A stretch of 64,000 bases of DNA. It comes from Clostridia bacterium (GTDB taxonomy: Bacteria; CBDUZB01; JAGLHV01). The stretch's first letter is position 1. Every line of letters begins with the position of its first letter. This document shows positions 254 to 54,091 of the stretch, in pieces. The notes under the pieces were generated by a model. It had not been told where the DNA came from and did no database searches. It worked only from the letters and a program-made list of their open reading frames with translations. The stretch is from the NCBI GenBank assembly GCA_030637025.1, contig DAOVVV010000008.1, positions 5,802 to 69,801 on the forward strand, read 5' to 3'. The position numbers were made by a program, and so were the translations under genes.

Positions 254-396
254 GAGTTCTGCGAAATAACGCATTCTGTCATTCCGCACTTGATGCGGAA
301 TCTAAAATGTAATGGATTCCTGCTTTCGCAGGAATGACCCGCCTTACAGACTGGCGGGCAAACAAAAAGGGTAAAAAGGTTATTTTGCAGAAGTCT
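254..396 (+). mobile_element. MITE-like composite repeat copy with TIRs (5' AGAGTTCTGC ... 3' GCAGAAGTCT). Contains REP-like palindromes gtcattccgcacttgatgcggaatc and ggattcctgctttcgcaggaatgac
   Basis: Near-identical copies at 16784-16924, 26596-26735 and 53940-54091. Its 3' end lies 33 nt before the glnA ATG. Confidence 0.6.
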
Positions 397-429
397 AAAA
401 CCAAAAAAAATTAAAAGGAGGAAAAAGAA

Positions 430-1761
430 ATGGGAAGCAGAAGTAAAGAAGAAATTTTGAAATTAGTAAAAGAAAATGATGTTAAATTTATTAGATTGTG
501 GTTTACCGACATTTTAGGACAGGTTAAAAGTTTTGCCATTACTGATAATGAATTAGAAACTGCCTTAGAAAACGGTATGGGTTTTGATGGTTCTTCCATT
601 ACCGGTTATCAATCCATAGAAGAAAGTGATATGATTGCTTTTCCTGATACAAGTACCTTTGAGCTACTTCCCTGGCGGCCAAAAGAAAAAGCAGTGGCCC
701 GTATGATTTGCGATATTTTAACCCCTGATAGAAAACCCTATGAAGGGGATCCCCGTTATATATTAAAAAAAGCCTTAAAAAGAGCTAACGATATGGGATT
801 TGACCATTTTTACATAGGACCGGAATTAGAATTTTTCTATTTTAAGAATGATCAGGGTGCTGAGGTTTTAGATAAAGGAGGGTATTTTGATTTAACTACC
901 TTAGATGTTGCTTCTGATTTAAGACGGGATACGGTACTGGCTTTAGAATCAATGGGAATACAGATTGAGTATAGTCACCATGAAGTAGGACCCAGTCAGC
1001 ACGAAATAGATATGCGTTATGATGATGCCATAAAAATGGCTGATAATGTAATAACTTATCGTATTATTGTTAAGGAAATTGCTCAAAAATACGGGGTGTA
1101 TGCTACATTTATGCCTAAACCGGTTTTTGGAGAAAATGGCAGTGGTATGCATACTCATCAGTCTCTTTTTAAAGGAGATAAAAATTCCTTTTTTTCCAAA
1201 AAGGATAAAAATTACTTAAGCGATACAGCCAAAAAATTTATTGCCGGACAAATAGTACATGCTAAGGAAATGAGTGCAGTATTTGCCCAATGGGTAAATT
1301 CTTACAAAAGACTTGTTCCGGGATATGAAGCCCCGGTTTATATTGCCTGGTCGCGAAGAAACAGATCAGCTTTAATCAGGGTGCCGGAATATCATCCGGG
1401 AAAGGAACAGGCAACGAGAATGGAATTTAGGTCTCCGGATCCTGCTTGCAATCCTTATCTAACCTTTGCGGTGTTACTGAATGCCGGTTTAGACGGTATT
1501 GAGAAAAATTATGAATTACCTGAATCAATAGAGAAGAATTTGTACAATTTAAGTGCGGAAGAGAGAAAAGATTTAGGAGTGGCGTCTCTGCCGGATAGTT
1601 TGGGAGAAGCAGTTAATCTATTGGAGAAGAGCGATTTTATAAAAAAAGCTCTAGGTGAGCATGTATTTTCTCGTTTTGTAACTTTAAAAAGAAAAGAATG
1701 GGATGATTATCGAATTCAATTGACCAAATATGAATTAGATAAGTTACTTCCCATACTCTAA
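430..1761 (+). CDS. glnA: glutamine synthetase type I (443 aa, GSI-alpha-like)
   Basis: Full-length Gln-synt N and C domains. Starts with the MxxxSKEEILKLVKENDVKFIRLWFTDILG pattern typical of GlnA. AAAAGGAGG RBS. Confidence 0.9.
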   Translation: MGSRSKEEILKLVKENDVKFIRLWFTDILGQVKSFAITDNELETALENGMGFDGSSITGYQSIEESDMIAFPDTSTFELLPWRPKEKAVARMICDILTPDRKPYEGDPRYILKKALKRANDMGFDHFYIGPELEFFYFKNDQGAEVLDKGGYFDLTTLDVASDLRRDTVLALESMGIQIEYSHHEVGPSQHEIDMRYDDAIKMADNVITYRIIVKEIAQKYGVYATFMPKPVFGENGSGMHTHQSLFKGDKNSFFSKKDKNYLSDTAKKFIAGQIVHAKEMSAVFAQWVNSYKRLVPGYEAPVYIAWSRRNRSALIRVPEYHPGKEQATRMEFRSPDPACNPYLTFAVLLNAGLDGIEKNYELPESIEKNLYNLSAEERKDLGVASLPDSLGEAVNLLEKSDFIKKALGEHVFSRFVTLKRKEWDDYRIQLTKYELDKLLPIL

Positions 1762-1773
1762 AATAAGGGAGTA

Positions 1774-1824
1774 TATACACAACCTTGGTTTTCTATTTAA
1801 ATAGGGAACCAAGGTGATGTGTTA
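1774..1824. terminator. imperfect long hairpin after glnA (core ccttggtt / aaccaagg)
   Basis: Inverted repeat 13 nt after the glnA stop. No clear U-tract. Confidence 0.3.
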
Positions 1825-1841
1825 TATTAGATTAAACGGTT

Positions 1842-2549
1842 ATGGTTTTAATTATAAAACATGTTACAGTAGAAGGTCCGGGGTTAATTGGTGATTTTTT
1901 TCAAGCTAGCAAATGGCAGATAAAAACGGTTGAATTGGGGAATGGGGATAAATTACCCGAAGACCTTCAAGGAATCAAAGGGATTATTGTTTTAGGTGGA
2001 CCGATGAATGTGGATGAAGAGAAACAATATCCTTTTTTGAAAGAGGAAAATAAGTTCTTAAAAAAAGCAATGATATTTAATATTCCTCTTTTAGGCATAT
2101 GTTTAGGTTCGCAGCTTCTGGCTAAAGCAACAGGAGCGAAAGTGCGAAAAGGTGTGGCGAAGGAAATCGGATGGTACAAAATTAATTTAACCGAAGAAAG
2201 TAAAAAAGATTTACTTTTTGAAGGTTTAGGAAAAAATTTGGAAGTATTTCAATGGCACGAAGACCAATTTGACTTACCGCAAGGAGCTTTATTATTAGCA
2301 AGATCTAAAATTTGTCCGAATCAGGCATTTAAGATAGGAAAGAATGCTTATGGCTTGCAGTTTCATATAGAAATTACTCCCGGGATGATTGAATCTTGGG
2401 TAAAGAAATATTATGTAGAGAATGGTAAGCAGTCGATTAAAATAACAGATGTGCAAAAGATGCTTATAGATACATATAGAAAAAAAGGACAATTAACGAG
2501 ACAGACAAAAAAAATTCTTTCCAATTTTTCTCAAATAATAGCAGGGTAA
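1842..2549 (+). CDS. class I glutamine amidotransferase-like protein (GATase1 / peptidase C26-like)
   Basis: GICLGSQLL nucleophile-elbow Cys and a QFHIE His motif, ~235 aa. Sits immediately after glnA. Confidence 0.65.
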   Translation: MVLIIKHVTVEGPGLIGDFFQASKWQIKTVELGNGDKLPEDLQGIKGIIVLGGPMNVDEEKQYPFLKEENKFLKKAMIFNIPLLGICLGSQLLAKATGAKVRKGVAKEIGWYKINLTEESKKDLLFEGLGKNLEVFQWHEDQFDLPQGALLLARSKICPNQAFKIGKNAYGLQFHIEITPGMIESWVKKYYVENGKQSIKITDVQKMLIDTYRKKGQLTRQTKKILSNFSQIIAG

Positions 2550-2552
2550 AAG

Positions 2553-2702
2553 TGGCAGTCGCAACCTTTAGGTTGCGTTCTCAGAGGAGATTTTCCGCAG
2601 GCTTTAGCCTGCGACTACCAAAAAGGGAGTTATGACACACTCTGTTCGCAGGAATCCATTTTGTCGACGATATCCTGGATTCCCGCTTTCGCGGGAATAA
2701 CA
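2553..2702. repeat. ~70-bp palindromic element (tggcagtcgc-hairpin-hairpin-gcgactacca) followed by REP-like half sites
   Basis: Copies at 4973-5038, 16375-16525, 35596-35627 and 53376-53403. Contains gcaacctttaggttgc and gcaggctttagcctgc hairpins. Confidence 0.6.
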
Positions 2703-2810
2703 ACAATAGGACTTTGGCAATAAATTCATAGTCTTCCGAATATTAAAAAAGGAATATGCTGAAAAATGAAAGTCAGGATCTATCTTGACACTACTTTAGA
2801 AAAAGACAAT

Positions 2811-2839
2811 TTGACAGGTGTTTTTTTTTGATGTATAAT
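2811..2839 (+). promoter_or_regulatory. consensus sigma-70 promoter TTGACA-N17-TATAAT
   Basis: TTGACA at 2811-2816 and TATAAT at 2834-2839. About 22 nt upstream of the 2861 start codon. Confidence 0.6.
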
Positions 2840-2860
2840 GCTTAAAATTTAGGCAGAATA

Positions 2861-3232
2861 ATGATTAATATTTCCATAATCGATAAAGAAAGAAAAGTAT
2901 CCTTACTAATTATTAAAGCCCTTAATGATGCTGGGTATTGCATAAAAAAAATAGATACTGAACAGGAAAAACAAATAATAGAAATAGAAGAGAAAAAAGT
3001 TTCTTTTGAACGATCAGTTAAAGAGCTGGAGGATTTTTTTATCCGCAGTAAAGAAAAAGAGCTTTATAAATTTATTTTAACTGCAATAGAAAAACCTTTA
3101 ATTGAGGATGTTTTAGAAAAATGTAGCGGAAATAAAGTGCAAGCAGCACAAATTTTAGGTATAAATAGGAATACTTTACATACTAAAATTAAAAAGTTAG
3201 GGATTAAAATAGAAAAATGGAAAAAAGAATGA
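2861..3232 (+). CDS. small regulator with C-terminal Fis-type (NtrC C-terminal-like) HTH
   Basis: C-terminal ...NKVQAAQILGINRNTLHTKIKKLGI resembles the HTH_8/Fis motif. No AAA+ or receiver domain. Its stop overlaps the nadE start. Confidence 0.5.
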   Translation: MINISIIDKERKVSLLIIKALNDAGYCIKKIDTEQEKQIIEIEEKKVSFERSVKELEDFFIRSKEKELYKFILTAIEKPLIEDVLEKCSGNKVQAAQILGINRNTLHTKIKKLGIKIEKWKKE

Positions 3233-4905: not shown

Positions 4906-4972
4906 TGAAAGTGTCAAAAAAGGAATGGCAAGAAAAACAGAAAGAAGTTTGTAGATAAAGAGAAAATCGGGG

Positions 4973-5038
4973 GGTAGCCGCAGGCTTTAGCCTGCGTTAT
5001 CGTTGGAGATTTTACGCAGGCTAAAGCCTGCGACTACA
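4973..5038. repeat. palindromic element copy (ggtagccgcaggctttagcctgcg...cgcaggctaaagcctgcgactaca)
   Basis: Same architecture as 2553-2620. Two internal 16-bp hairpins flanked by inverted ends. Confidence 0.6.
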
Positions 5039-5109
5039 AAAACAGAAATCAGAACAGAAATATGCAGATATTTTTGACAATACTAAAGGAATATTGAAAG
5101 AGATAAAAA

Positions 5110-11132: not shown

Positions 11133-11206
11133 ACAGCGCTGAAAGATAGAAGACACCTAAATCTCTATGGTTACATAGTGCAATTATGGGAAAAAATGGA
11201 TAATTT

Positions 11207-11230
11207 GTCATTCCTGCGAAAGCAGGAATC
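11207..11230. repeat. 24-bp REP-like perfect palindrome gtcattcctgcgaaagcaggaatc (left flank of GIY-YIG ORF)
   Basis: Same palindrome at 317-340, 11542-11565, 16868-16891 and 54038-54061, with variants elsewhere. Confidence 0.7.
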
Positions 11231-11248
11231 TAAAAAAAAAGAATAAAC

Positions 11249-11536
11249 ATGAGAGATTATTATATTTATATATTAGCCAGTAAAAAGAATGGGACATTGT
11301 ATCTTGGAGTTACGAATAATCTTGTAAAAAGAGTATATGAACACAAACAAAACTTTGTAGAAGGATTTACTAAGAAATATAACATTCATAGTTTGGTATA
11401 TTATGAACAGACCAATGATAGCTACAGTGCTATTCAACGCGAAAAAAGGATGAAAAGATGGAAGAGGGAGTGGAAGATAGAATTAATTGAAAGATTTAAT
11501 CCTGGATGGAAAGATTTACATTATGATTTGATATAA
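11249..11536 (+). CDS. small GIY-YIG nuclease family protein (95 aa)
   Basis: YIYILAS...GTLYLGVTNNLVKRVYEH is a GIY-YIG core (YhbQ/UPF0213-like). Flanked within 18 nt and 5 nt by inverted copies of the REP-like palindrome. Confidence 0.7.
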   Translation: MRDYYIYILASKKNGTLYLGVTNNLVKRVYEHKQNFVEGFTKKYNIHSLVYYEQTNDSYSAIQREKRMKRWKREWKIELIERFNPGWKDLHYDLI

Positions 11537-11541
11537 TTATG

Positions 11542-11685
11542 GATTCCTGCTTTCGCAGGAATGACAGAATGGAAAAAGGAATGACAGAATAAGAACAGGA
11601 ATGACCCTCCTTATTCTCCGCCTCAGGCGGATGAGGCGGAACGGAGAGGCACGTAGAATAAGAATAGAATCAGTGCGGAATGATT
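11542..11685. repeat. cluster of repeat modules (REP-like palindrome, ggaatgac repeats, ccgcctcaggcgg palindrome, cagtgcggaatga)
   Basis: Right flank of the GIY-YIG ORF. Its modules are shared with the other repeat loci. Confidence 0.6.
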
Positions 11686-12802: not shown

Positions 12803-12886
12803 TTCCCCGCGGCTTGTGGTAGTGTCAAAAATTAGATGAAAGAATGTGAAAGGCTTACGATAAGTAATTAGAAAATAGGAGTATTT

Positions 12887-12965
12887 GTCATTTCCGTGTA
12901 AACGGGAATCCTTGAGTAAATATTAGCAAAAGAATAGATTCCTTCTTTCGCAGGAATGACAGAAT
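12887..12965. repeat. two REP-like palindromes (variant gtcatttccgtgtaaacgggaatc and gattccttctttcgcaggaatgac)
   Basis: Lies between carA and carB. Palindrome family as above. Confidence 0.55.
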
Positions 12966-13122
12966 AAAAAAAGAAAAAGCACTTATTTTAACATAAATGA
13001 AAAATCATAAACTAAATGTCAAAAATATTTGACATTACTTAGCTTGCGGTAGGAAGCTACGAATAAATAAAATAGTTGGGAATGGAATACAAATATAAAC
13101 CTTTACATTAAGGACGATAAAA

Positions 13123-16374: not shown

Positions 16375-16525
16375 TGGTAGCCGCAACCTTTAGGTTGCGT
16401 TATCGCCGGAGATTTTCCGCAGGCTACTTGTTCGCTCCGCCTCAGGCGGATTTGGAGGAAAGCCTGTGACTACCAAAAAGGGAGTTATGACACAGTCTGT
16501 TTGCAAGAATGACGCAGCAAGCTGC
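16375..16525. repeat. palindromic element copy carrying a nested insertion of the ccgcctcaggcgg module (16427-16460) inside its second hairpin, plus a 3' REP-like tail
   Basis: The consensus aggctaaagcct hairpin is split as aggcta[34-nt insert]agcct. The ends tggtagccgc / gtgactacca are retained. Confidence 0.6.
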
Positions 16526-16649
16526 AGATAATTAGACCCAAAGAGAAATTATTAAATTTCATTAAGTATAATTTAGCAGGCTTACAGTCTGCCATTATGT
16601 TTGGTGGAAAGATGAAAATATTGCAAGAGAAATTTGGGTGATTAAAAGC

Positions 16650-16678
16650 TTGACAATGTTACATTTAATATTTATACT
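16650..16678 (+). promoter_or_regulatory. sigma-70 promoter TTGACA-N17-TATACT
   Basis: TTGACA at 16650-16655 and TATACT at 16673-16678. About 280 nt upstream of the 16956 gene. Confidence 0.45.
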
Positions 16679-16744
16679 AAGACATATTTTGAAGAATAAA
16701 ATGGCACAATGATGTGCATTATAAGGACAAAGGGGTCCGATATT

Positions 16745-16767
16745 AAAGGGGCACCTTTTATTTTTTT
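16745..16767 (+). terminator. short hairpin (aaagg-ggca-ccttt) plus U-tract, a possible attenuator in the leader
   Basis: 5-bp stem, 4-nt loop, then tattttttt. Preceded by a 22-codon mini-ORF (ATGATGTGC...). Confidence 0.25.
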
Positions 16768-16783
16768 AAAGGTGTGAAGTTAA

Positions 16784-16924
16784 AGAGTTCTGCAAAATAC
16801 AATATTCTGTCATTTCGCTCTGCCTGAGGCAGATGATGCGGAATCTATAATGTTTTTAAATATCAATAGATTCCTGTTTTCGCAGGAATGACAAAAAAGA
16901 TAAAAAGCTATTTTGCAGAAGTCT
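16784..16924 (+). mobile_element. MITE-like composite repeat copy (TIRs agagttctgc / gcagaagtct)
   Basis: Same modules as 254-396. Its 3' end lies 31 nt before the 16956 ATG. Confidence 0.6.
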
Positions 16925-16955
16925 ATGTGAAGTTATTAAAAGGAGGAAAGGAAAA

Positions 16956-18545
16956 ATGAATTTACAACAACCAAATGCAAATGAAGCAATACAGACCTCA
17001 AACCGGTCAAGAAATGTTTCTCCGGTATCGGGACTTTGTACCCGTTGTATTGACGGATGTCGTGGTAACTGCGATGTTTTTAAAGCAACATTTAGAGGAC
17101 GGGAAGTAATTTATCCGGGACCTTTCGGAGATATTACTGCAGGAGGAGATAAAGAGTATCCTATAGATTATTCACATCTTAATATTTTAGGATATGCAAT
17201 GGGTGCGAAGGGACTTCCCGAAGGAGTCGAAGCCGGACCGGATACGGCAACTTTTCCGGCTGTAAAAACTGAAACCGAATATGGTTGGGACAAGAAAGTA
17301 AAACTGAAAGTACCTATTTTTACCGGGGCATTAGGTTCTACGGAAATTGCCCGCAAAAATTGGGAACATTTTGCCATTGGGGCCGCAATTTCCGGGGTAA
17401 CCCTGGTTTGCGGAGAAAATGTCTGTGGAATTGATCCAAAACTCGAGTTAGATGCTAAAGGTAAAGTTAAAAATGCTCCTGATATGGATCGTAGAATCGA
17501 AACTTACAGAAGATTTCACGGCGGCTATGGTGAAATATTAGTTCAAATGAATGTAGAAGATACCCGTCTGGGTGTTGCCGAATATGTGTTAAATAAACAT
17601 AAATTGGAGACGATTGAGCTGAAATGGGGACAAGGGGCAAAATGTATCGGTGGAGAAATTAAAGTAAAAAGTATTGAAAGGGCATTGGAACTCAAAAAAC
17701 GCGGGTATATTGTTACGCCGGATCCAACAGTTCATTCAGTGAAAGAAGCATATAAAGTTGGAGAAATTAAGGAATTTGAACGGCATTCCCGTCTTGGATT
17801 TGTTTCCGAAGAAGGTTTTTTGGCTGAGGTAGAACGTTTAAGAAAAATTGGTTTTAAACGTGTTACTTTAAAAACAGGTGCTTATCCAATGAGAGAACTG
17901 GCCATGGCGATTAAATACTGTTCAATTGCTAATATTGACCTCTTAACCATTGATGGTGCTCCGGGTGGAACAGGAATGAGCCCCTGGAGAATGATGCAGG
18001 AATGGGGTATTCCCACATTCTATTTACAGTCGATGACCCAGGAGATTTGTGAGAAGTTAACTAAAAAAGGAATGCGTGTTCCTGATATTGCTATCGCCGG
18101 TGGTTTTTCTACTGAAGATCATGTATTTAAGGTGCTTGCTATGGGTGCGCCTTATACAAAAGCTGTTTGTATGGGTAGAGCACTAATGATTCCCGGAATG
18201 GTAGGTAAAAATATTGGCCAATGGATGAAAGAAAACAACTTACCCAAAACAGTTTCTCAATATGGAAAGACAGCAGAAGAAATCTTTGTTTGTTATGAAG
18301 AGCTGGTTGATGAATATGGGAAAGACATGAAAGATATTCCATTAGGTGCTATTGGTATTTATTGCTTTTCACAGAAAATAAAAGTAGGGCTACAGCAATT
18401 AATGGCTGGTACCCGAAATTTTAAACTTTCAACTATTACCAGAAAAGATGTTACCGCTCTTACTCAGGAAGCAGCTAAAGTATCGGGAATACCTTATGTG
18501 ATGGACGCTTATCGTCAGGAAGCAGAGGCTATTCTGGAAGGTTAA
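16956..18545 (+). CDS. glutamate synthase FMN-binding domain-2-like protein (archaeal-type standalone GltB subunit) with N-terminal 4Fe-4S Cys cluster
   Basis: N-terminal Cys-rich CTRCIDGCRGNC motif, GltS FMN-domain signature and a glycine-rich FMN/phosphate loop. Confidence 0.7.
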   Translation: MNLQQPNANEAIQTSNRSRNVSPVSGLCTRCIDGCRGNCDVFKATFRGREVIYPGPFGDITAGGDKEYPIDYSHLNILGYAMGAKGLPEGVEAGPDTATFPAVKTETEYGWDKKVKLKVPIFTGALGSTEIARKNWEHFAIGAAISGVTLVCGENVCGIDPKLELDAKGKVKNAPDMDRRIETYRRFHGGYGEILVQMNVEDTRLGVAEYVLNKHKLETIELKWGQGAKCIGGEIKVKSIERALELKKRGYIVTPDPTVHSVKEAYKVGEIKEFERHSRLGFVSEEGFLAEVERLRKIGFKRVTLKTGAYPMRELAMAIKYCSIANIDLLTIDGAPGGTGMSPWRMMQEWGIPTFYLQSMTQEICEKLTKKGMRVPDIAIAGGFSTEDHVFKVLAMGAPYTKAVCMGRALMIPGMVGKNIGQWMKENNLPKTVSQYGKTAEEIFVCYEELVDEYGKDMKDIPLGAIGIYCFSQKIKVGLQQLMAGTRNFKLSTITRKDVTALTQEAAKVSGIPYVMDAYRQEAEAILEG

Positions 18546-19511: not shown

Positions 19512-19590
19512 TGTCACTCCTGCGAAAACAGGAGTCTATCCCTGTAGATTCCCTCCTTCGCGGGAATGACGCAGCAAGCTGTGGGAAATT
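19512..19590. repeat. REP-like palindrome variants (gtcactcctgcgaaaacaggagtc; gattccctccttcgcgggaatgacgcagcaagctgtgg)
   Basis: The shared tail gaatgacgcagcaagctg also occurs at 16505-16522. Confidence 0.55.
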
Positions 19591-19610
19591 AGCCACAAAA
19601 AGAAATTAAA

Positions 19611-21760: not shown

Positions 21761-22135
21761 GATAGTCCATAGACAACAAACAACAGAAAGTTATAAGTTA
21801 ATAGTTATGAGTTATAAGTTAAAAGAAAATTGAAAGACAAGAATAAAAAACAGGCACAAAGGCATCAAGGCACAGAGGCACAAAGTAAAAGACAAGACAA
21901 CAGATAGTCCATAGACAACAAACAACAGAAAGTTATAAGTTACTAGTTATGAGTTATAAGTTAAAAAAAAATTGAAAGACAAGAATAAAAGACAGGCACA
22001 AAGGCATCAAGGCACAGAGGCACAAAGTAAAAGACAAGACAACAGATAAAAGATAAAAGAAAGTTATTAGTTAATAGTTATGAGTTATAAGTTAAAGAAA
22101 TAAAAAACAAAGACAAAGACAAAAGAAAAAAGACG
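21761..22135. repeat. tandem array: two full 142-bp units (21761-21902, 21903-22044), a degenerate third, and a degenerate unit upstream
   Basis: Units are more than 95% identical. Each contains an 8-bp-periodic AGGCACAA x4 sub-repeat and a gttataagtta sub-repeat. The + strand is strongly T-depleted. Confidence 0.8.
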
Positions 22136-25454: not shown

Positions 25455-26591
25455 ATGGCCTGGATTCAAAAAACTTTAGATATAAACGAAAAACTTTCAG
25501 TTTTATCACATGATTCACAATACGATCTGGCATGTTCCTGCAGTATAAATGATGATGATCGCCGGCATCGCTCAAAAGAGGACAAGTGGATATATCCGGT
25601 TACTTTTCCTAATGGCGGCCGGTCTTTTTTGTTTAAGACTTTAATTTCTAATGTATGTGTTAATGATTGTAAATATTGTCCTTTGCGTGAAGGACAGAAT
25701 ACCAGAAGATGTACACTGCAGGCATATGAACTGGTAAAAGCCTTTCTTCAGTATTATCAAAAAGGTAAAGTGATGGGGCTTTTTTTAAGTAGTGGCGTAA
25801 TGGGTAATCCCGATAAAACAATGGAGCAAATAAATAAAATTGCTCTTATTTTAAGAAAAAAACATTTTAAAGGATACATTCATCTAAAAGTTATTCCCGG
25901 TGCTTCTAATGCAGCGATAGAGGAAACTGTTTCTTTAGCCAGTGCAGTTTCAATAAATATCGAAACTGCCGGCGAAAAGAATTTTAACCAACTTTCTAAC
26001 AGCAAAAACTATTTACAGGATATTATTAGGCCGCTTAAATTAATCAGCCGGCTTACCGGAAAAGGTTCTCGTTATAGTAGAGTAAAAAAAACGACGCAAT
26101 TTGTGGTTGGTGCATCTGAAGAAACTGACCAGGAAATTATTAAATATTCCTGGAACTTATACCGGCGATTGGGTTTAAACCGTATTTATTTTAGTGCTTA
26201 TCAACGGGGTTTAGGCGAACCTGATTTACCCGGGGAGATTTCCGGTCAAAGCAATAATGATATTTTAACTCGAGAGCATCGTTTATATCAGGCGGATTGG
26301 TTAATCAGAAAATATGGTTTTACGGAAAAAGAAATTCTTTTTCAAGCTGATGGTAATTTATCATTGACTCTGGACCCCAAGGAAACTTGGGCTAAGAATC
26401 ATCCGGAATTTTTTCCGGTTGATATTAATAAAGCAGATAAGTTAAAATTACTACGGGTCCCGGGTTTAGGATTGGTTACCGTTAATTATATACTTAAATA
26501 CAGGGAAAAGGGTGGATATATTCGTTATCTGGAAAACTTAGGAAAATTAGGAAAAAGACTGATCAAGGCAAAACAGTATTTAAAAATTTAG
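25455..26591 (+). CDS. radical SAM protein with C-terminal helix-hairpin-helix (putative DNA modification/repair radical SAM family)
   Basis: CVNDCKYC (CxxxCxxC) and a C-terminal LLRVPGLGLVTVNYIL HhH. No partner gene lies adjacent. Confidence 0.65.
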   Translation: MAWIQKTLDINEKLSVLSHDSQYDLACSCSINDDDRRHRSKEDKWIYPVTFPNGGRSFLFKTLISNVCVNDCKYCPLREGQNTRRCTLQAYELVKAFLQYYQKGKVMGLFLSSGVMGNPDKTMEQINKIALILRKKHFKGYIHLKVIPGASNAAIEETVSLASAVSINIETAGEKNFNQLSNSKNYLQDIIRPLKLISRLTGKGSRYSRVKKTTQFVVGASEETDQEIIKYSWNLYRRLGLNRIYFSAYQRGLGEPDLPGEISGQSNNDILTREHRLYQADWLIRKYGFTEKEILFQADGNLSLTLDPKETWAKNHPEFFPVDINKADKLKLLRVPGLGLVTVNYILKYREKGGYIRYLENLGKLGKRLIKAKQYLKI

Positions 26592-26595
26592 ATAG

Positions 26596-26735
26596 ACTTC
26601 TGCGGAATGACACATTCTGTCATTCCGCTCCGCCTCAGGCGGATGATGCGGAATCTATAATATTCTTAAATATCAATAAATTCCTGCTTCCGCAGGAATG
26701 ACAATAAAAGGAAAAAGGTTGTTTTGCAGAACTCT
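26596..26735 (+). mobile_element. MITE-like composite repeat copy (5' TIR agacttctgc, 3' gcagaactct)
   Basis: The 5' TIR is an exact reverse complement of the canonical 3' end. Its 3' end lies 30 nt before the 26766 ATG. Confidence 0.6.
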
Positions 26736-26765
26736 TAAAAATTCAGAAATAAAGGAGGGGGAATT

Positions 26766-34027: not shown

Positions 34028-35494
34028 ATGAAAATTTCAGTAAAAATAATATTGTCAATGATTTTATGCTGCCTGGCTACTGTTAATGTACAGGCCAAAA
34101 CTAATATAAAAGAAGCTATCGTAAAAATATATACTGTTTGCAACCGATATAATTATTATGAACCATGGCAAATGCGCGGTCAAAGAAGAGGAACGGGTTC
34201 AGGGTGCATAATTAATGGCAACAGAATATTAACTAATGCTCATGTAATTGCGGACCAAACCTTTATCCAGGTAAAACGGGCCGGACAATCAAAGAAATAT
34301 ACAGCAGAAGTAGAAATTGTAGCTCACGAATGTGACCTTGCTATTTTGAAGGTTAAAGACGATTCATTTTTTACAGGGGTTAAACCGTTGCAGATTGGGA
34401 AATTAGCAGAAGTGAGAGATAAAGTTGCTGTTTATGGTTTTCCGGTAGGTGGTGATGAATTGTGTATTACCGAAGGGGTAGTTTCTCGCATAGAACATCA
34501 GGCATATACTCATAGTAAGGCCCATTTATTAACCTGTCAAATTGATGCTACCATTAATCCCGGGAATAGCGGGGGACCTGTAGTCAAAAATAATAAAATA
34601 GTTGGAATAGCCTTTCAAGCAGGTGCAGGTGAAAATATTGGATATATGGTTTCTGTGCCGGTTATTAATCATTTTTTACAGGACATAAAAAATAATAAGT
34701 ACGATGGAATCCCTGATATTGGTATTTCCTGTCAAAAAATGGAAAATTATGCCCTCAGAAAAAAATATAATATGAACTCTAAACAAACAGGATTGTTGAT
34801 AAATAAAATTTATCCCGGCTCTTCTGCCGAGGGAAGATTAAAATCCGAAGATATAATCCTTGCTGTAGACAATAAAAATGTCGAAAATGACGGAACAATA
34901 GAATTCCGAGAAAATGAAAGAACATTTTTTATATATGTAATTCAAAATAAATATATCAATGATACTGTTAATTTTAATATTCTAAGAGAGAGTAAAATTA
35001 TTAATGTAAAAATAAAATTGACCACCCCGGTAAATTTTTGGCGGTTAGTTCCGCATCAACAGTATGATATTGCTCCGACTTATTATATTTTAGGCGGATT
35101 GGTGTTTGAACCTTTAACTCTGGATTTTTTAAATGAATGGGGTGGAGATTGGAATAATGATGCCCTTAAGAATTTAATCAACTATTATTATTCCGGAGAA
35201 ATATTATCCGAGCGAAAAGAAATAGTCATACTGGTGCAGGTTTTAGCCGATGAAATTAATACAGGCTATCATGATTGGAAATATAATGTAATTTCTTATG
35301 TTAATGGCCAAAAGGTAAGCATCATAAGTGATTTGGTGACCGCGATTGAAAAACATAAAGGAAAATATCATACAATAGTAGATGAACGCGGATATAAAAT
35401 AGTTTTAGATAAAAATGAAGTTGATAAGAACAATCAAAGAATTTTAAAAAAATATAAAATTAATTTTGACCGTTCGGAAGATTTAAAAAAATGA
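34028..35494 (+). CDS. secreted trypsin-like (S1/HtrA-like) serine protease
   Basis: Signal peptide, catalytic His (LTNAHV), Asp (CDLAIL) and Ser (GNSGGPV), then a ~250-aa C-terminal extension. Confidence 0.7.
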   Translation: MKISVKIILSMILCCLATVNVQAKTNIKEAIVKIYTVCNRYNYYEPWQMRGQRRGTGSGCIINGNRILTNAHVIADQTFIQVKRAGQSKKYTAEVEIVAHECDLAILKVKDDSFFTGVKPLQIGKLAEVRDKVAVYGFPVGGDELCITEGVVSRIEHQAYTHSKAHLLTCQIDATINPGNSGGPVVKNNKIVGIAFQAGAGENIGYMVSVPVINHFLQDIKNNKYDGIPDIGISCQKMENYALRKKYNMNSKQTGLLINKIYPGSSAEGRLKSEDIILAVDNKNVENDGTIEFRENERTFFIYVIQNKYINDTVNFNILRESKIINVKIKLTTPVNFWRLVPHQQYDIAPTYYILGGLVFEPLTLDFLNEWGGDWNNDALKNLINYYYSGEILSERKEIVILVQVLADEINTGYHDWKYNVISYVNGQKVSIISDLVTAIEKHKGKYHTIVDERGYKIVLDKNEVDKNNQRILKKYKINFDRSEDLKK

Positions 35495-35496
35495 AT

Positions 35497-35730
35497 AGAG
35501 TTCTGCAAAATAACGCATTCTGTCATGCGGAATCTGTAATGTGTTTAAAATATCAATAGATTTCTGCTTTCCAGACTGTGTCGCAATCCCTTTTTTGGTA
35601 GTAGCAGGCTTTAGCCTGCGGCTACCACATGAAAATATGAGTTATGACACAGTCTGTTCGCAGGAATGACTTGCCTTATCCGCCAGTCTTTAAGGCGGAG
35701 CGGGCAGGCAAACTACTTCGCAGAAAGATT
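35497..35730 (+). mobile_element. MITE-like composite repeat (5' TIR agagttctgc) with the short palindromic element (35596-35627) and ccgccagtctttaaggcgg module nested inside
   Basis: Largest copy (~235 bp). Its 3' end lies 30 nt before the 35761 ATG. Confidence 0.55.
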
Positions 35731-35760
35731 AAAAAATAAACTAAAAGGAGGAAATTAGTA

Positions 35761-40732: not shown

Positions 40733-40810
40733 CAAATGCTCTTTTTTTGCCACACCGATAATATATACTTTTCTTGAAAATAAAAAAAATTAAAGTATAA
40801 ATATTTTTTA

Positions 40811-40964
40811 AATTCCTGTTTTCCAGACTATGGCACAACTCTGATTTTTAAAGCAATTGTAGGGGCAACATTTATGACGCCCGTCGGAAAAAGTATTCAT
40901 CAGCCCAATCCTCCAAATCCGCCTGAGGCGGAGCGGGCAGGCAATAAAGGTAGAAAGGCTATTT
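40811..40964 (+). mobile_element. 5'-truncated MITE-like composite repeat (retains 3' end ggctattttacaaaagatt)
   Basis: Contains ccgcctgaggcgg and gagcgggcaggc modules. Followed by AAAGGAGG and an ATG-TAA mini-ORF (41005-41010). Confidence 0.5.
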
Positions 40965-41066
40965 TACAAAAGATTTAAAGTTAAAAATAAAGGAGGACAA
41001 GAAAATGTAAAACATAAGCGGTATAAAGAAGTAGAAAACAAAAACGATAAAAAGGAGAATTGAAAA

Positions 41067-45809: not shown

Positions 45810-45847
45810 ATTTTAAATTTGAATTAAATTGAAGGGGGAGGAAAAAA

Positions 45848-46667: not shown

Positions 46668-46728
46668 AGAGTTATGACGAAATTTTGATTATATTTTTAG
46701 GAAATAGAATATTGTATTTTGCAGAATT
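46668..46728 (+). mobile_element. miniature copy of the MITE-like element: only the two TIR regions (aaagagttatgac ... tattttgcagaat)
   Basis: Both termini are recognisable about 35 bp apart. The 3' end lies 29 nt before the ATG at 46758. Confidence 0.4.
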
Positions 46729-46757
46729 ATTTTTTAGAAAACAAAAAGGAGGAAAAA

Positions 46758-46967
46758 ATGTTAGGATATTGGTCAGTAATAATTCTTTTGGGTATTCTTA
46801 TGTGTTATAATTTAATTAATGCTTACAAGGATTATACTTCAGATAATAAAACATTAAAATTTGCCGGTCATTTAATTCTTTTGTTGGTGCTTTTTATTAT
46901 CATCTTAAATTCTCTTTTTACTGTAATGGAATTCGGTCTCGAAACAACAACAATTTTCTCAAAATAA
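46758..46967 (+). CDS. small two-TM membrane protein (69 aa)
   Basis: AAAAAGGAGG RBS. The ORF-track start at 46719 is probably too far upstream. Confidence 0.35.
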   Translation: MLGYWSVIILLGILMCYNLINAYKDYTSDNKTLKFAGHLILLLVLFIIILNSLFTVMEFGLETTTIFSK

Positions 46968-48234: not shown

Positions 48235-48264
48235 TTGAAGTGAATAATAAAAAATTTGTATAAT
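48235..48264 (+). promoter_or_regulatory. candidate promoter TTGAAG-N18-TATAAT for mtnA
   Basis: TATAAT at 48259-48264, preceded by TG two nt upstream. Weak -35. Confidence 0.35.
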
Positions 48265-48304
48265 ATGTTATATTAAAAAAAATATTGTTTAATCTGGTAT
48301 AAAA

Positions 48305-49357: not shown

Positions 49358-49375
49358 CTAAAGGTTAAAGGTTAT

Positions 49376-49960: not shown

Positions 49961-49976
49961 AAAAGGAGGAATAATT

Positions 49977-50378
49977 ATGCGAGTAGCAATATCTACAGAT
50001 GCAGACTCTGTATCTGCTCATTTTGGTCGATGTCCGTCTTTTACTATTGTGGACATTGAAGAGGGGAAGATTATAAAAAAAGAAGTTATTGATAATCCGG
50101 GGCATCATCCCGGGTTTATCCCGCAGTTTTTAAACGAAAAAGGGGTTAAATGTATTGTTGCCGGGGGTATGGGAATGAGAGCAACCGGACTTTTTAATGA
50201 ATTCGGTATTCAGACTATTATCGGTATAAGTGGAAAAATTGATGAAGTTATCGATAAACTACAAAAAGGGACCCTGCAAAGCGGTGAAAGTCTATGCCGG
50301 CCTGGTGCAGGAAAGGGTTATGGTTTGGATAAAACTGAATGTAACCACCCTGCCGAAGATGATTGTGACCACAAATAA
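49977..50378 (+). CDS. NifX/NifB-C-terminal-like dinitrogenase FeMo-cofactor-binding-fold protein with Cys/His-rich tail
   Basis: MRVAISTD...HFGRCPSFTIVDIEEGK pattern of PF02579. The tail CRPGAGKGYGLDKTECNHPAEDDCDHK is Cys/His-rich. Confidence 0.6.
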   Translation: MRVAISTDADSVSAHFGRCPSFTIVDIEEGKIIKKEVIDNPGHHPGFIPQFLNEKGVKCIVAGGMGMRATGLFNEFGIQTIIGISGKIDEVIDKLQKGTLQSGESLCRPGAGKGYGLDKTECNHPAEDDCDHK

Positions 50379-50441
50379 AAGAAAAATTCAAGATAAAAAA
50401 ATCCGGATATAAAAATAAGCAACAGAATAATAGGGGGAATT

Positions 50442-51044
50442 TTGGAAAAAGAGGTAATAGAAAACCATCAACGGTATTTAGAGAGAATAAATGTTTATAA
50501 AAAATTTGGCTATGATAATGAAAAAGAAAGGGATTTTATTATCCAAAAAGCACAACCTATAGGTGGTCGTATATTAGAGGTTGGCACAGGGAAGGGACAT
50601 CTAAGCATTGCTTTAGCCAAGAAGGGCTATAGCTTTGTTAGTGTTGATATTTCAAAAGAAGAGCAAGAGTTTGCCCAACTGAGCATTCAATATTTAGAGT
50701 TGAATAAACAAGTAGATTTTAAAATAGAAAGTGCCAAACATTTAAATTTTGACAACGGAAGCTTTGATACAATTATTTCCGTTAATTTAGTTCATCACCT
50801 TACAAATTTGTTTGAAGTTGTAGATGAATGGCTCCGAATTGTTTCTTCGGACGGTAAGATTATTTTAAGTGATTTTACCCGGGAGGGGCTGGAAGTAATC
50901 GATAAAGTTCATTTAAATGAAGGAAGAAAACACCCTGTTGGTGAAATTAATTTAACAGATATAGATAATTACTTAATAGCAAAAAAAATCAGGGTAGAAA
51001 AGTATAGAAGCAAATTTCAGGAAATATCGATAATAAAAATTTAG
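50442..51044 (+). CDS. class I SAM-dependent methyltransferase (TTG start)
   Basis: Motif I ILEVGTGKGHLSIALAKKG and post-I DIS. RBS tagggggaa. Confidence 0.65.
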   Translation: MEKEVIENHQRYLERINVYKKFGYDNEKERDFIIQKAQPIGGRILEVGTGKGHLSIALAKKGYSFVSVDISKEEQEFAQLSIQYLELNKQVDFKIESAKHLNFDNGSFDTIISVNLVHHLTNLFEVVDEWLRIVSSDGKIILSDFTREGLEVIDKVHLNEGRKHPVGEINLTDIDNYLIAKKIRVEKYRSKFQEISIIKI

Positions 51045-51052
51045 GGTTAAGA

Positions 51053-51631
51053 ATGAATATACTGGCAATTAACGGTAGTCCGAAAAAAAATGGGAAGATA
51101 AGTAGAATAGTTAAGGAAATCATAAAAGGAGCATCAGAAGAAAACAATAAATGTGAAATTTTATATTTATCAGATATTAAAAACATAAATGATTGTAAGG
51201 GTTGTATGCAATGCCAGGAACAAGGAAAATGCATAATAAGAGATGATATTCTGATTGTTGAAGAGGCGATAAAAAGAAATGAAGTAATAATATTTGCTAC
51301 GCCAACACACTGGGGAAATGTTTCCGGAATAATGCTGCGAATGATAGAACGATTATTCGGTTTTTTAATCGAAGAAAAACCATTAGGATTTCCTGTTGCT
51401 AAGGCAGGAAAGGGAAAGAAGGCTATATTGGTTACTGCCTGCAGTACATCCTGGCCGTTTAATTGGATATTTAATCAATCACGAGCTTGTTTTGGCCGGT
51501 TAAAGGAAGTTTGTAAATACAGCGGCATAAAGATAATAAAAACTTTTACTTTGCCTGGAACAACAAAGATGGATAAAATACCGCAAAAATATTTAATTAA
51601 AGCTTTTATGCTCGGAAGAAAGATTAAATAA
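51053..51631 (+). CDS. iron-sulfur flavoprotein (Isf) of the NADPH-dependent FMN reductase family
   Basis: Flavodoxin-like fold with the compact CxxCxxCx5C motif (CKGCMQCQEQGKC) characteristic of Isf. Confidence 0.6.
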   Translation: MNILAINGSPKKNGKISRIVKEIIKGASEENNKCEILYLSDIKNINDCKGCMQCQEQGKCIIRDDILIVEEAIKRNEVIIFATPTHWGNVSGIMLRMIERLFGFLIEEKPLGFPVAKAGKGKKAILVTACSTSWPFNWIFNQSRACFGRLKEVCKYSGIKIIKTFTLPGTTKMDKIPQKYLIKAFMLGRKIK

Positions 51632-51697
51632 AAATATGTTTTATTTTTTTATTGACAAATGATATTAATTTAGTATCATAAAGTAAAGGAGACAAAC

Positions 51698-52099
51698 ATG
51701 ATGCTGATTAACAGGGATACAGACTATGCCGTTAGGGCCCTTTGTTTTATTGCGCAGAGTAAAAAAAACAAAGTGTCAGTTGGTGAATTAGTGAAAGAGT
51801 TAAAAATACCCAGGCCCTTTTTAAGAAAGATACTTCAAATTTTAAACAAGAAAAAAATGCTCAAATCATCCAAAGGACCACACGGTGGCTTTATCCTGGC
51901 TAAACCCGGCAATAAAATCCTTTTAACTGATTTAATGAAAATCTTCCAGGGGGTGCTAAAACTAAATAAATGTATTTTTAAAAAACAAGTTTGTCCGAAC
52001 ATGAAAACTTGTAAACTCAAAAAGAAAATTGACAAAATAGAAAAACATGTTATTTCCGAATTAAAAGGCATTACATTAGAACAGTTATCAGAAAAATAA
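51698..52099 (+). CDS. Rrf2-family transcriptional regulator with Cx6Cx5C putative Fe-S ligands
   Basis: N-terminal wHTH (DYAVRALCFIAQ...VSVGELVKELKIP) and a C-terminal CIFKKQVCPNMKTC cluster. Confidence 0.8.
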   Translation: MMLINRDTDYAVRALCFIAQSKKNKVSVGELVKELKIPRPFLRKILQILNKKKMLKSSKGPHGGFILAKPGNKILLTDLMKIFQGVLKLNKCIFKKQVCPNMKTCKLKKKIDKIEKHVISELKGITLEQLSEK

Positions 52100-52117
52100 A
52101 GATATAAAGGGATAAAA

Positions 52118-53167
52118 ATGGATACACTAAAAATTGCTTTTTTTGATACAAAACCATATGACCAAAAATTTTTTGATCTGGTAAATAGCGATTATAATTT
52201 TGAACTAAAATATTTCAAAAATCACTTAAGCAAAGAAACTGTTGAACAGGTGCAAGGATTTAACGTCGTATGTGCATTCGTTAACGATACTGTTGACAAA
52301 GATGTTATAAGGATACTAAAACAAGAAGGTGTTAAATTAATTGCTTTGCGTTGTGCCGGATATAACAACGTTGATTTAAGAGCGGCATTTAAAAATATTC
52401 ATATTATGCGCGTACCGGAATATTCTCCTTATGCAGTTGCTGAACATGCGGTAGCCTTGATGTTGGGATTAAACAGAAAAATCTATCGGGCTTATTATCG
52501 TACCCGGGATAATAATTTTAGTATCAACGGATTACTCGGTTTTGATATGCACGGCAAAACAGCAGGCATTATCGGAACAGGAAAAATCGGAAAATGTCTG
52601 ATTTCTATTCTTAAAGGCTTTGGGATGAATATTATTTGTTTTGATCTTCATCCGGATGAGTCATATGCAAAGGCTGTGGGGATTAATTATGTTCCTCTTG
52701 CTCAGCTTTATAGTCAATCGAATATTATTTCTTTACATTGTCCCTTAACCCCTCAAACCCAGTATATGATTAATCATGAAAGTATTGCCCAAATGAAAGA
52801 GGGAATAATGATTATAAATACGGGTAGGGGAAAATTGATTAAGACACAGGCATTGATAGAGGGTCTTAAAAGCGGAAAAATCGGGGGAGCGGGGCTTGAT
52901 GTATATGAGGAAGAAAGTAATTACTTTTTCGAGGACTTTTCTGCTTCAATGATCAGTGACGATGTATTAGCACGGCTACTGACTTTTTCCAATGTGCTGA
53001 TAACTTCCCATCAGGGTTTTTTTACCAAAGAAGCATTGACTAATATAGCTCAGACAACTTTTGATAATATTGTTGAATTTTTTAACGGCGGATATTTAAA
53101 AAATGAGATTTGTTATCATTGCGGAGAAACATGTATAAAAAAAGATAAAAAACGTTGTTTTGATTAA
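52118..53167 (+). CDS. ldhA: D-lactate dehydrogenase (D-2-hydroxyacid dehydrogenase, LdhA-like)
   Basis: Collinear similarity to E. coli LdhA (ALRCAGYNNVDL; RAYYRTRDNNFSINGLLGFDMHGKTAGIIGTGKIG). Extra C-terminal Cys-rich tail. Confidence 0.85.
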   Translation: MDTLKIAFFDTKPYDQKFFDLVNSDYNFELKYFKNHLSKETVEQVQGFNVVCAFVNDTVDKDVIRILKQEGVKLIALRCAGYNNVDLRAAFKNIHIMRVPEYSPYAVAEHAVALMLGLNRKIYRAYYRTRDNNFSINGLLGFDMHGKTAGIIGTGKIGKCLISILKGFGMNIICFDLHPDESYAKAVGINYVPLAQLYSQSNIISLHCPLTPQTQYMINHESIAQMKEGIMIINTGRGKLIKTQALIEGLKSGKIGGAGLDVYEEESNYFFEDFSASMISDDVLARLLTFSNVLITSHQGFFTKEALTNIAQTTFDNIVEFFNGGYLKNEICYHCGETCIKKDKKRCFD

Positions 53168-53375
53168 AATTGTAATAAAGGGTAATGTCAAAAATAAAAT
53201 GATAAATACTCAGAGAAGGGTTATAAATAAAAAAGAATTTTTTCATAATGTAGGACGGAAAGCGTATAATCTATACTTTGGATACTTCCATAAGAAAAGG
53301 TTTAATTGATAATTGGAAAGAGTATGTGTTTAAATGTTCGTTGGATTTTGATTTAGAAGGAATTATTAAATAAAA

Positions 53376-53403
53376 ACGCAGGCTAAAGCCTGCGACTACC
53401 AAA
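53376..53403. repeat. half-copy of the palindromic element (cgcaggctaaagcctgcgactacca) abutting the RBS of the 53419 gene
   Basis: The 16-bp hairpin gcaggctaaagcctgc lies 10 nt upstream of AAAGGAGG. Confidence 0.5.
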
Positions 53404-53418
53404 GAAAGGAGGAAAAGT

Positions 53419-53928
53419 ATGCAAGTGTATCGTTGTCGTGTATGTGGAGAAGTGTATATCGGAGATGAAAAACCCACAAGTTGTCCTTTTTGCGGTGCTC
53501 ATGAGGGGTATTTTGTTTTAGCTAAAGAATGGAAATTAATACATAGTGAGGTCTTATCCGATACAAGTAAAGAAAATTTAAAAAAAGCATTGGATTTGGA
53601 AATAAATAATACTAATTTTTACAAAGCCGCTTCGGAAAAAAGCAAAGATGTACATTTTTCCAGTATGTTTAAAGGTTTGTCCAAGGTGGAAAGAGAGCAT
53701 GCTTCAACTATATGTAAACATCTTAGAATAGCCAAACCGGAATCGAGTGTAGGAGCGGATAAGGCAGTTGATTCCGACCGGGCAAATATAGAAGAAGCTA
53801 ATCGCAGGGAAAAAAGTGCGGTTAAATTTTATGGGGAAGCAATTAATCAGGCACCGGAAGAAGCCATTAAAGAGTTTTTTAAAGCATTAATGCAGATAGA
53901 ATCAGACCATATAGCTTTAACCGACTAA
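53419..53928 (+). CDS. reverse rubrerythrin-like protein (N-terminal rubredoxin-like CxxC...CxxC + C-terminal ferritin-like diiron domain)
   Basis: N-terminal CRVCGEVY...CPFCGA and C-terminal E...ExxH ferritin-like helices. Confidence 0.65.
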   Translation: MQVYRCRVCGEVYIGDEKPTSCPFCGAHEGYFVLAKEWKLIHSEVLSDTSKENLKKALDLEINNTNFYKAASEKSKDVHFSSMFKGLSKVEREHASTICKHLRIAKPESSVGADKAVDSDRANIEEANRREKSAVKFYGEAINQAPEEAIKEFFKALMQIESDHIALTD

Positions 53929-53939
53929 AAATATTTAAG

Positions 53940-54091
53940 AGTTATGCAAAATACAATATTCTGCCTGCCCGCCAGTCTTTAAGGAGGGTCATTCCGCACT
54001 TGATGCGGAATCTATAATGTTTTTAAATATCAATAGATTCCTGCTTTCGCAGGAATGACAAAAAAGATAAAAAGCTATTTTGCAGAAGTTT
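53940..54091 (+). mobile_element. MITE-like composite repeat copy (TIRs agagttatgc / gcagaagttt)
   Basis: Near-identical to 254-396 and 16784-16924. Its 3' end lies 29 nt before the dfx ATG. Confidence 0.6.

Follow-up and report, generated by a model that had tools for sequence, protein, structure and literature searches.

The stretch of DNA analysed here, hereafter the window, comprises 64,000 nucleotides of a Clostridia bacterium (assembly GCA_030637025.1, contig DAOVVV010000008.1) and carries copies or remnants of one repeated element at seven loci (Table 1). The genes downstream of these loci encode glutamine synthetase (glnA), a Glu_synthase-domain protein (gltB-like), a BaxI_1 protein, a porin, desulfoferrodoxin (dfx) and two small membrane proteins. 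A first-pass annotation of the same letters had named both the loci and the genes; direct reading and repeat detection agree with it on each, and the ends of the copies have been refined to the coordinates in Table 1. We interpret the element as a MITE (miniature inverted-repeat transposable element), that is, a mobile, non-coding and non-autonomous DNA transposon, belonging to a family that crosses phylum boundaries and is defined by its termini alone. We regard this as probable, a grade that applies jointly to the MITE family, to insertion anchored 6 nt from a Shine-Dalgarno (SD) motif, to an enzyme acting in trans and to a leader passenger that the host gene tolerates.

The ends of the element are inverted repeats of 15-16 nt, (T)AGA[G/C]TTCTGCAAAAT ... 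ATTTTGCAGAA[G/C]TCT(A), rather than the ~10 bp first ascribed to them, and a position logo over the copies gives (T)AGAsTTCTGCAAAAT as the consensus terminal inverted repeat (TIR). With up to three mismatches allowed, the 16-mer TATTTTGCAGAAGTCT matches the window ten times against 1.0 expected, a number reached by none of 100 shuffles, and the partner terminus AGAGTTCTGCAAAATA matches nine times against 1.3 expected, again unequalled by any shuffle. A profile built from four full copies recovers copies 1, 2, 3 and 7 at E values of 1e-31 to 1e-45 and also finds the left part of copy 4 and the right end of copy 5. Copies measure 63-236 nt in the window and 100-240 nt elsewhere, typically ~140 bp, and contain only chance open reading frames (ORFs) of at most 42 aa; the seven in the window share one internal orientation. 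Rfam covariance models gave no match at gathering score over the whole window, and an E-value search of 16600-17000 returned a single irrelevant sub-threshold match.

Table 1. Copies of the element, their flanking target-site duplications (TSDs) and associated features, in window coordinates.
Feature	Coordinates	Strand	Description
Copy 1	253..396	+	Full length, 144 nt; glnA leader; TIRs 253-268 and 381-396; interior of hairpin modules A and B plus inverted module C
Direct repeat flanking copy 1	236..252, 397-413		17 bp, AAAACCAAAAAAAATTA
Copy 2	16784..16924	+	Full length, 141 nt; upstream of Glu_synthase-domain (gltB-like) gene at 16956
TSD of copy 2	16773-16782, 16926-16935		10 bp, TGTGAAGTTA; then 6 nt and GGAGG at 16942
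Copy 3	26594..26735	+	Full length, 142 nt; directly after the stop of a radical-SAM gene, before the BaxI_1 gene; G/C at TIR position 4 swapped relative to the other window copies
TSD of copy 3	26581-26592, 26736-26747		12 bp, one mismatch, TAAAAATT[T/C]AGA; then 6 nt and GGAGG at 26754
Copy 4	35497..35729	+	233 nt; left TIR intact, module A partly deleted, right TIR degenerate (CTTCGCAGAAAGAT)
TSD of copy 4	35486-35495, 35731-35740		10 bp, one mismatch, AAAAAAT[G/A]AA; left repeat spans the TGA stop of the upstream gene; GGAG at 35747
Element nested in copy 4	35572..35656	+	85 nt, unrelated; inverted ends CAGACTGTGTC...GACACAGTCTG; flanking TTC duplication
Copy 5	~40802..40975	+	Remnant; left end lost, interior rearranged; right TIR TATTTTACAAAAGATT at 40960-40975; GGAG at 40992, ATG-TAA mini-ORF at 41005-41010
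Copy 6	46668..46730	+	63 nt, internally deleted; both TIRs, no hairpin modules; GGAG at 46748, ATG of a 69-aa membrane protein at 46758
Copy 7	53938..54091	+	Full length, 154 nt; between rubrerythrin and dfx genes
TSD of copy 7	53927-53936, 54093-54102		10 bp, one mismatch, AAAAAT[A/C]TTT; left repeat overlaps the TAA stop of the upstream gene; then 6 nt and GGAGG at 54109
GIY-YIG nuclease gene	11249-11536 (bracketed unit 11204..11577)	+	95 aa; Pfam PF01541, 4e-13
Sigma-54-type match	136..150	+	-24/-12 match TGGCAACCAAATTGC; upstream of copy 1; consensus match only, context and not element
Sigma-70-type match	16650..16678	+	TTGACA-17-TATACT; upstream of copy 2; 11/12 positions, consensus match only

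How far does the element reach beyond this genome? The first-pass annotation had held that absence elsewhere would speak against a mobile element; the family proves to be very widespread. Paired termini 100-240 nt apart occur in metagenome-assembled genomes (MAGs) and single-cell genomes labelled Calditrichota/Caldithrix, Cloacimonadota, Kiritimatiellota, Verrucomicrobiota (including one single-cell genome), Planctomycetota, Nitrospira and Bacteroidota, and the termini are found under the labels of at least seven phyla. Most of the 119 loci from a scan of species-representative genomes with a single terminus were chance 15-mer matches, and of these loci only the ones with paired termini were used. 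The family is also carried by assembly GCA_023143305.1. A metagenome scan for TTCTGCAAAAT-N95-125-ATTTTGCAGAA, a pattern that admits elements 125-155 nt long, found at least 120 loci. When AGA[G/C]TTCTGCAAAAT is required at both ends with no more than two mismatches, 96 copies are obtained, 85 of them unique by their flanks. The host loci range from 31% to 60% G+C. Only the termini are common to all members, and the interiors fall into unrelated subfamilies, each a hairpin pair. Both internal orientations occur beside the gene in two of these subfamilies (13 vs 9 and 4 vs 4), which disposes of an orientation bias in the wider family. Whether TIR position 4 is G or C at one end is independent of the base at the other end (41 C/G, 18 G/G, 17 C/C), which argues that the termini are not conserved for base pairing; an RNA-structure constraint, considered for them, was rejected for want of covariation at this position. 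The termini are best read as a site recognised by a protein rather than as paired RNA.

The flanks and the sister strains bear out the first-pass description of a MITE-like element with inverted termini and a mosaic interior, as does the lack of coding capacity. A single nucleotide (T on the left, A on the right) usually separates AGA...TCT from the flanking repeat. Exact repeats of 9-13 bp flank 54 of 152 copies, and repeats of at least 8 bp flank 57; re-paired flanks, used as a control, gave one 7-bp repeat in 152 and none longer. With at most two mismatches allowed, 10-nt flank matches are found for 66 of 83 copies and for 3 of 83 controls. TSDs are typically 9-12 bp long and usually ~10, the 41 exact cases spanning 8-13 bp plus one of 17. 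The first-pass annotation had proposed a test for TA or TAA duplications; those found measure 9-13 bp. As to related genomes, where the first-pass annotation had suggested looking for empty sites, two sites are empty in sister strains. At dfx, the related-strain Logan contig L004 encodes an identical desulfoferrodoxin, the rubrerythrin-dfx gap is 26 nt and the target is single-copy; dfx also lacks the element in contig L260, but the gene context differs there (dfx directly follows a 2-Hacid_dh gene). At glnA, the leader is uninterrupted in L256 and L257 (GCA_030630345.1; GlnA 98% identical), and the 17-bp repeat AAAACCAAAAAAAATTA of copy 1 is present once. In a further strain, L258 (GCA_030595925.1; GlnA again 98% identical), the glnA leader holds another variant of the element: its 10-bp TSD is AAAAAAAATT, its interior differs and it has the opposite G/C at position 4 of the TIR. 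GlnA relatives outside the species are at most 83% identical. No further empty sites were found at the BaxI_1 gene and the gene for a 58-aa protein, where the contigs found were filled or broke inside the repeat. At least three tandem arrays hold a pair of members of unequal length, and one and the same 10-bp sequence stands between these members and flanks the array; two further cases are cut by contig ends; since the members share one 10-bp TSD, the same target register was hit twice. The insertion site is therefore polymorphic between near-identical strains, and the same target is re-used by different family members.

These observations weigh on the idea that the element is not mobile at all but a conserved cis-regulatory leader RNA or operator, kept by common descent or reached by convergence. 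Its fixed position in leaders, its strong predicted structure and the presence of nitrogen genes (glnA and the gltB-like gene) among its hosts would suit such an RNA. The target duplications and the empty sites in sister strains contradict it, however, and the host genes are unrelated, as are the interiors; both orientations occur, the sole variable TIR position shows no pairing covariation and there is no Rfam match. We consider this explanation hardly credible.

What sets the position of the insertions? The first-pass annotation had placed six copies 29-33 nt upstream of an ATG and had treated the porin-region copy as an exception, ending at 40964, 40 nt before the ATG-TAA mini-ORF. The fixed spacing holds, but its range is wider, the element ending 33, 31, 30, 30, 29, 27 and 29 nt before the ATG in copies 1 to 7; the porin-region copy conforms, its true right end at 40975 lying 29 nt before the ATG-TAA. 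Counted from the gene-side end, GGAG starts at +21, +18, +19, +18, +17, +18 and +18. Between the duplication and GGAG lie 6 nt in copies 2, 3, 4 and 7, 5 nt in copy 5 and 3 nt in copy 1; copy 6 has no clear flanking duplication, and its GGAG is still at +18. Copy 1 is an outlier, with its 17-bp duplication and 3-nt gap against ~10 bp and 6 nt family-wide. The stretch 40990-41010, downstream of copy 5, combines a strong SD (AAGGAGG) with the start-stop mini-ORF, 57 nt upstream of the porin's own SD and ATG. The copy 5 remnant is anchored on the SD of the mini-ORF and not on that of the porin.

The same geometry pervades the family. When GGAG or GAGG starts are counted outward from the ends of all unique copies, they form a sharp peak at 17-20 nt and nowhere else. 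The motif starts 12-24 nt from one end in 64 of the 85 unique copies, nearly always at 17-21, and stands at both ends in one copy only. Random positions in the same loci score 1.8% per flank for the 17-20 interval, and CTCC/CCTC is found there in none of 168 flanks. Where the motif is missing (21 copies), the copy is in most cases a distal array member, precedes a GGGG-type SD or lies at a contig end; ~8-10 are truly elsewhere. In 51 copies with a clear start codon, the standard deviation (sd) is 1.5 nt for the distance from the end to GGAG, 1.9 for GGAG to start and 2.5 for end to start, and the first two distances are uncorrelated (r = 0.02). It follows that the element is positioned relative to the SD and that the 29-33 nt spacing to the ATG is a consequence. 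Among the 41 copies with exact duplications, 26 have 6 nt and 10 have 5 nt between TSD and GGAG (sd 0.94), and the glnA insertion of L258 also obeys the 6-nt rule. Because this gap is nearly constant while the duplication varies in length, the SD-proximal joint is the fixed one and the distal joint varies. Some 8-9 copies abut a correctly spaced GGAG that is followed by no ORF or by an ORF of 2-12 codons. Orientation neutrality, target re-use and these ORF-less sites favour, as far as sequence comparison can tell, a mechanism that measures from the motif.

The candidate promoters of glnA and of the 16956 gene, both predictions, lie at least 100 nt upstream of the element; sigma-54-type matches occur twice in the window against 0.37 expected. 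With candidate promoters so placed, copies 1 and 2 would be transcribed inside leaders, and the element is probably transcribed within the leader. Copies 3, 4 and 7 sit in former gaps of ~20-30 nt between co-directional genes; in copies 4 and 7 the upstream gene keeps its stop codon thanks to the duplication, and in copy 3 the duplication ends immediately past the stop. Folded as RNA together with the downstream 36-39 nt, copy 1 reaches a predicted -59 kcal/mol (z = -6.1) and copy 2 -47 kcal/mol (z = -4.1); both predicted folds are self-contained and closed by the TIR helix, with the spacer, SD and AUG unpaired. We propose that the element, transcribed as part of a leader or intercistronic RNA, would fold alone and leave the A-rich spacer, SD and AUG single-stranded, and that insertion would be tolerated because the SD is left free. 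The long TIR helix may also add an RNase III-type processing or stability site; in Correia elements, the long helix is cleaved by RNase III.

The main rival to targeting is selection: insertion would be only loosely targeted, for instance to A/T-rich DNA, and the geometry would come from selection for something useful that the element end provides at the exact SD distance, be it a promoter or transcription start directed outward, a hairpin that stabilises the 5' end or a standby platform for ribosomes; other copies would be lost. Read outward, each end gives nATTTTGCAGAAsTCT, which is weakly -10-like and would serve in either orientation; copies 3, 4 and 7 split tight gene pairs, where a new promoter could matter, and the shared orientation of the window copies points the same way. 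The Correia elements of Neisseria, moreover, carry outward promoters (PMC10969869). However, the -10-like string has no -35 partner: a promoter scan of 253-396 and 16784-16924 together with manual inspection found no sigma-70-type -35/-10 pair at the element ends, and in most subfamilies ATGACA lies 8-15 nt from the TATTTT hexamer, so that a sigma-70 promoter reading out of the ends was rejected for lack of a -35 at a workable spacing of 16-18 nt. The candidate glnA and gltB-like promoters lie upstream of the element. Selection would also leave unexplained a 6-nt spacing with an sd below 1 nt and the exact re-use of one 10-bp target by different members, and it sits poorly with the copies beside a GGAG that serves at most a dozen codons and with the scarcity of neutral copies elsewhere in intergenic DNA, which make up roughly 10%. 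We therefore hold selection unlikely, and site targeting the better supported cause of the fixed geometry. Of the two readings offered by the first-pass annotation, the outward promoter cassette has so far found no support and targeting is favoured, with the SD motif, instead of a promoter-proximal site, as the anchor. Two other promoter types were tried on the termini and dropped: a sigma-54 promoter, where TTGCA fits the -12 element but GG is 3 nt too close on reading the sequence, and the Bacteroidetes-type TAnnTTTG -7 box, of whose consensus the terminus is one T short.

On the basis of these data we propose the following model for the insertion of the element. An enzyme supplied in trans, most simply a DDE-type transposase, would recognise the conserved ends and be positioned by something that reads GGAGG to one side of its staggered cut, a molecular ruler much like Tn7, which measures from its attachment site. 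The SD-proximal joint would thereby be fixed and the distal joint would vary by ~1 nt. The copies themselves show that insertion, in either orientation, duplicates 9-12 bp of target, with the gene-side duplication ending 6 nt upstream of GGAG(G), and that the element end comes to lie 17-19 nt ahead of the SD and 27-33 nt ahead of the start codon. Several points weigh against this model. No autonomous copy, and no transposase bounded by the termini, was found in the ~1.6 Mb of fetched loci: long-range TIR pairs at seven loci, considered as an autonomous parent, enclose ordinary genes or nothing, and solo termini have no transposase beside them. A simple DDE transposase would not usually couple an asymmetric target determinant with orientation-neutral insertion, the TSDs vary in length more than is typical (9-13 bp, and 17 bp at copy 1), and the window's copies, all in one orientation, depart from the wider family. 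The phylum labels are those of the MAG depositors and may carry binning errors, the promoters and RNA structures are predictions only, and on the present sequence evidence targeting is not fully separable from very stringent selection. We give even chances to 'RBS homing' (RBS, ribosome-binding site), the proposition that a cross-phylum transposition system recognises the SD motif as DNA and inserts its passenger, in either orientation, 6 bp upstream. If it is true, the translation-initiation region of each gene would be a safe-harbour attachment site. There is a substantial chance that the targeting machinery is new; it is perhaps tied to a hairpin-bracketed GIY-YIG nuclease.

The palindromic modules named in the first-pass annotation are present, their positions and orientations vary among copies and some are nested in others. 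Module C occurs in both orientations and at different places among copies 1, 4 and 7, and in copies 2 and 3 the module A loop holds a CCGCCTCAGGCGG hairpin. Solitary hairpins of the GTCATTCC...GGAATGAC type are found at 2651-2710, 11204-11232, 11523-11577, 12884-12975 and 19512-19599. The interior appears to be filler made of lineage-specific palindromic hairpin pairs that are themselves small repeated units, which would explain its mosaic appearance. The 85-nt element nested in copy 4 (repeat detection, family D11) sits in the TTTC loop of hairpin module B; its right junction (…CAGTCTG|TTCGCAGGAAT) recurs at two other window sites, and ends related to it occur at 2606-2642, 16461-16497 and from 40824 onward, suggesting that it targets hairpin loops. 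The GIY-YIG gene is bracketed by inverted module-B hairpins like those of the MITE interior (GTCATTCCTGCGAAAGCAGGAATC at 11209-11232 and GGATTCCTGCTTTCGCAGGAATGAC at 11541-11566), in the pattern GTCATTCC...GGAATC / GATTCC...GGAATGAC. In a Pfam scan of 20 window ORFs the bracketed gene matched GIY-YIG and not Y1_Tnp. Homologues at five other loci, on unrelated contigs, have the same bracket built from lineage-specific hairpins; in one of them, L203 (455-1000), the bracket shares homology with the interior of the MITEs in that lineage. In some homologues, the bracket hairpins carry nested insertions in their loops. The protein family is very large and conserved across phyla at ~60-78% identity, its matches including a Kangiella homologue. 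By analogy, the gene with its hairpins looks like a REPIN-RAYT-style partnership with a different enzyme, of which we found no description in the literature searched, and such units may be the source of MITE interiors.

Could the GIY-YIG nuclease itself mobilise the element? It would nick at a fixed distance from a motif, like I-TevI, and the element would be copied in by repair. Besides the hairpins, which match the local MITE interior, the nuclease and the MITE termini are alike in being conserved across phyla, and one fixed and one variable joint would be in keeping with such a nick. The outer termini, though, were not found beside GIY-YIG genes, except for a degenerate one in L203, several MITE subfamilies have no GTCAT hairpins in their interior, 10-bp target duplications are not a normal product of double-strand-break homing, and the nuclease family, with its Kangiella homologue, appears far more widespread than the MITE. 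We regard this route as improbable, less likely than selection, and retain the enzyme in trans that reads the outer termini.

In structure the element agrees with MITEs throughout, except that no parent insertion sequence with these termini was found among the fetched loci. The closest counterparts are the Correia elements (CREE/NEMIS), which are likewise MITEs of ~100-155 bp with long TIRs and whole-length palindromic folding, mostly stand just upstream of genes with which they are co-transcribed, and no cognate transposase is known for them (PMC10969869). Correia elements duplicate TA and are confined to Neisseria, whereas the present family duplicates ~10 bp (9-13) and spans many phyla; they have defined outward promoters and an IHF site, while no outward promoter is recognisable here; and for them a fixed SD distance has not been reported, in contrast to the anchor 6 nt from GGAG. 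Their characteristic 26-bp TIR also appears to differ from the consensus given above. Tn7 at attTn7, like other ruler-type site-specific transposons, inserts a set distance away from, and to one side of, a sequence that it recognises and leaves intact. It shares with our model a target definable by a conserved functional motif, but each genome offers Tn7 a single site, its orientation is fixed, its duplication is 5 bp and its targeting proteins are known, against thousands of potential sites (any SD), either orientation and a 10-bp duplication in the present family. As in REP/BIME/REPIN-RAYT systems, the interior hairpins are REPIN-like inverted doublets (GTCATTCC..GGAATC, spacer, GATTCC..GGAATGAC) that also occur alone between genes, and a single protein gene is bracketed by hairpins as REPs bracket RAYT genes; here, however, that gene encodes a GIY-YIG nuclease rather than a Y1/HUH RAYT, and what defines the SD-anchored unit, its outer TIRs and its target duplications, is absent from REPINs. 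The nested element at 35572-35656, in a hairpin-module loop with a 3-bp duplication, resembles IS1397/ISKpn1 inserted into REP loops; this likeness concerns that non-coding element only and not the SD-anchored family. Neither the family nor its SD targeting rule was found described in the literature searched by sequence string and by concept, and a review of prokaryotic MITEs (PMC10969869) does not mention ribosome-binding sites at all.

What are the implications of an element that measures from the ribosome-binding site? If the model is correct, such a ruler would be a new targeting rule for transposons, and it would explain how a selfish element can reach high copy number in compact genomes without killing genes. 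Transposons that measure from a functional motif are rare and technologically valuable, as Tn7 and the CRISPR-associated transposases illustrate. In poorly known anaerobic phyla, hundreds of genes would have gained a structured RNA of 140 nt in their leaders or intercistronic gaps, which would probably affect operon coupling and mRNA processing. The 15-nt ends offer a simple search signature for the mobilising enzyme. There is also a consequence for assembly and annotation: the family fragments short-read assemblies of these genomes, and eight Logan short-read contigs of the window's organism begin inside the element.

Several other features of the window and of the fetched loci accompany these results. 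A sister class at 13 loci has termini one T longer (GAG[T/C]TTCTGCAAAATA ... TATTTTGCAGAA[A/G]CTC), is flanked by TA or 5-bp TAnTA-like repeats and shows neither the 10-bp duplication nor SD anchoring; the inner terminus that it has in common with the family suggests that a related enzyme follows another target rule here. In several samples (eight loci, from gut and other metagenomes), a very large ORF is preceded at 53 nt by a palindromic unit of 148 nt with the ends CATTTTCTGCAAAATG...CATTTTGCAGAAAATG; this unit has the 11-nt core in common with the family and is probably unrelated. Hairpin doublets of the GGTAGCCGCAGGCTTTAGCCTGCG...CGCAGGCTAAAGCCTGCGACTACC type occur without outer termini downstream of genes at 2554-2625, 4973-5042, 16376-16484 and 53376-53403, and like doublets form the interior of SD-anchored copies at eight loci in other metagenomes. 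In the glnA leader (136-210), the sigma-54-type match is followed by a hairpin with a 15-bp stem (AAACGGCTATTTTAT...ATAAAATAGCCGTTT), and both are kept in sister strains with or without the MITE. Between the sigma-70-type match and copy 2 (16650-16768), a short hairpin followed by a T-run (AAAGGGGCACCTTTTATTTTTTT) could serve the Glu_synthase-domain gene, within whose leader it lies, as an attenuator or terminator. Finally, 21761-22100 holds an A-rich unit of 142 nt repeated in tandem two and a half times (98% identity), within a 505-nt intergenic region upstream of a DUF2007 gene.

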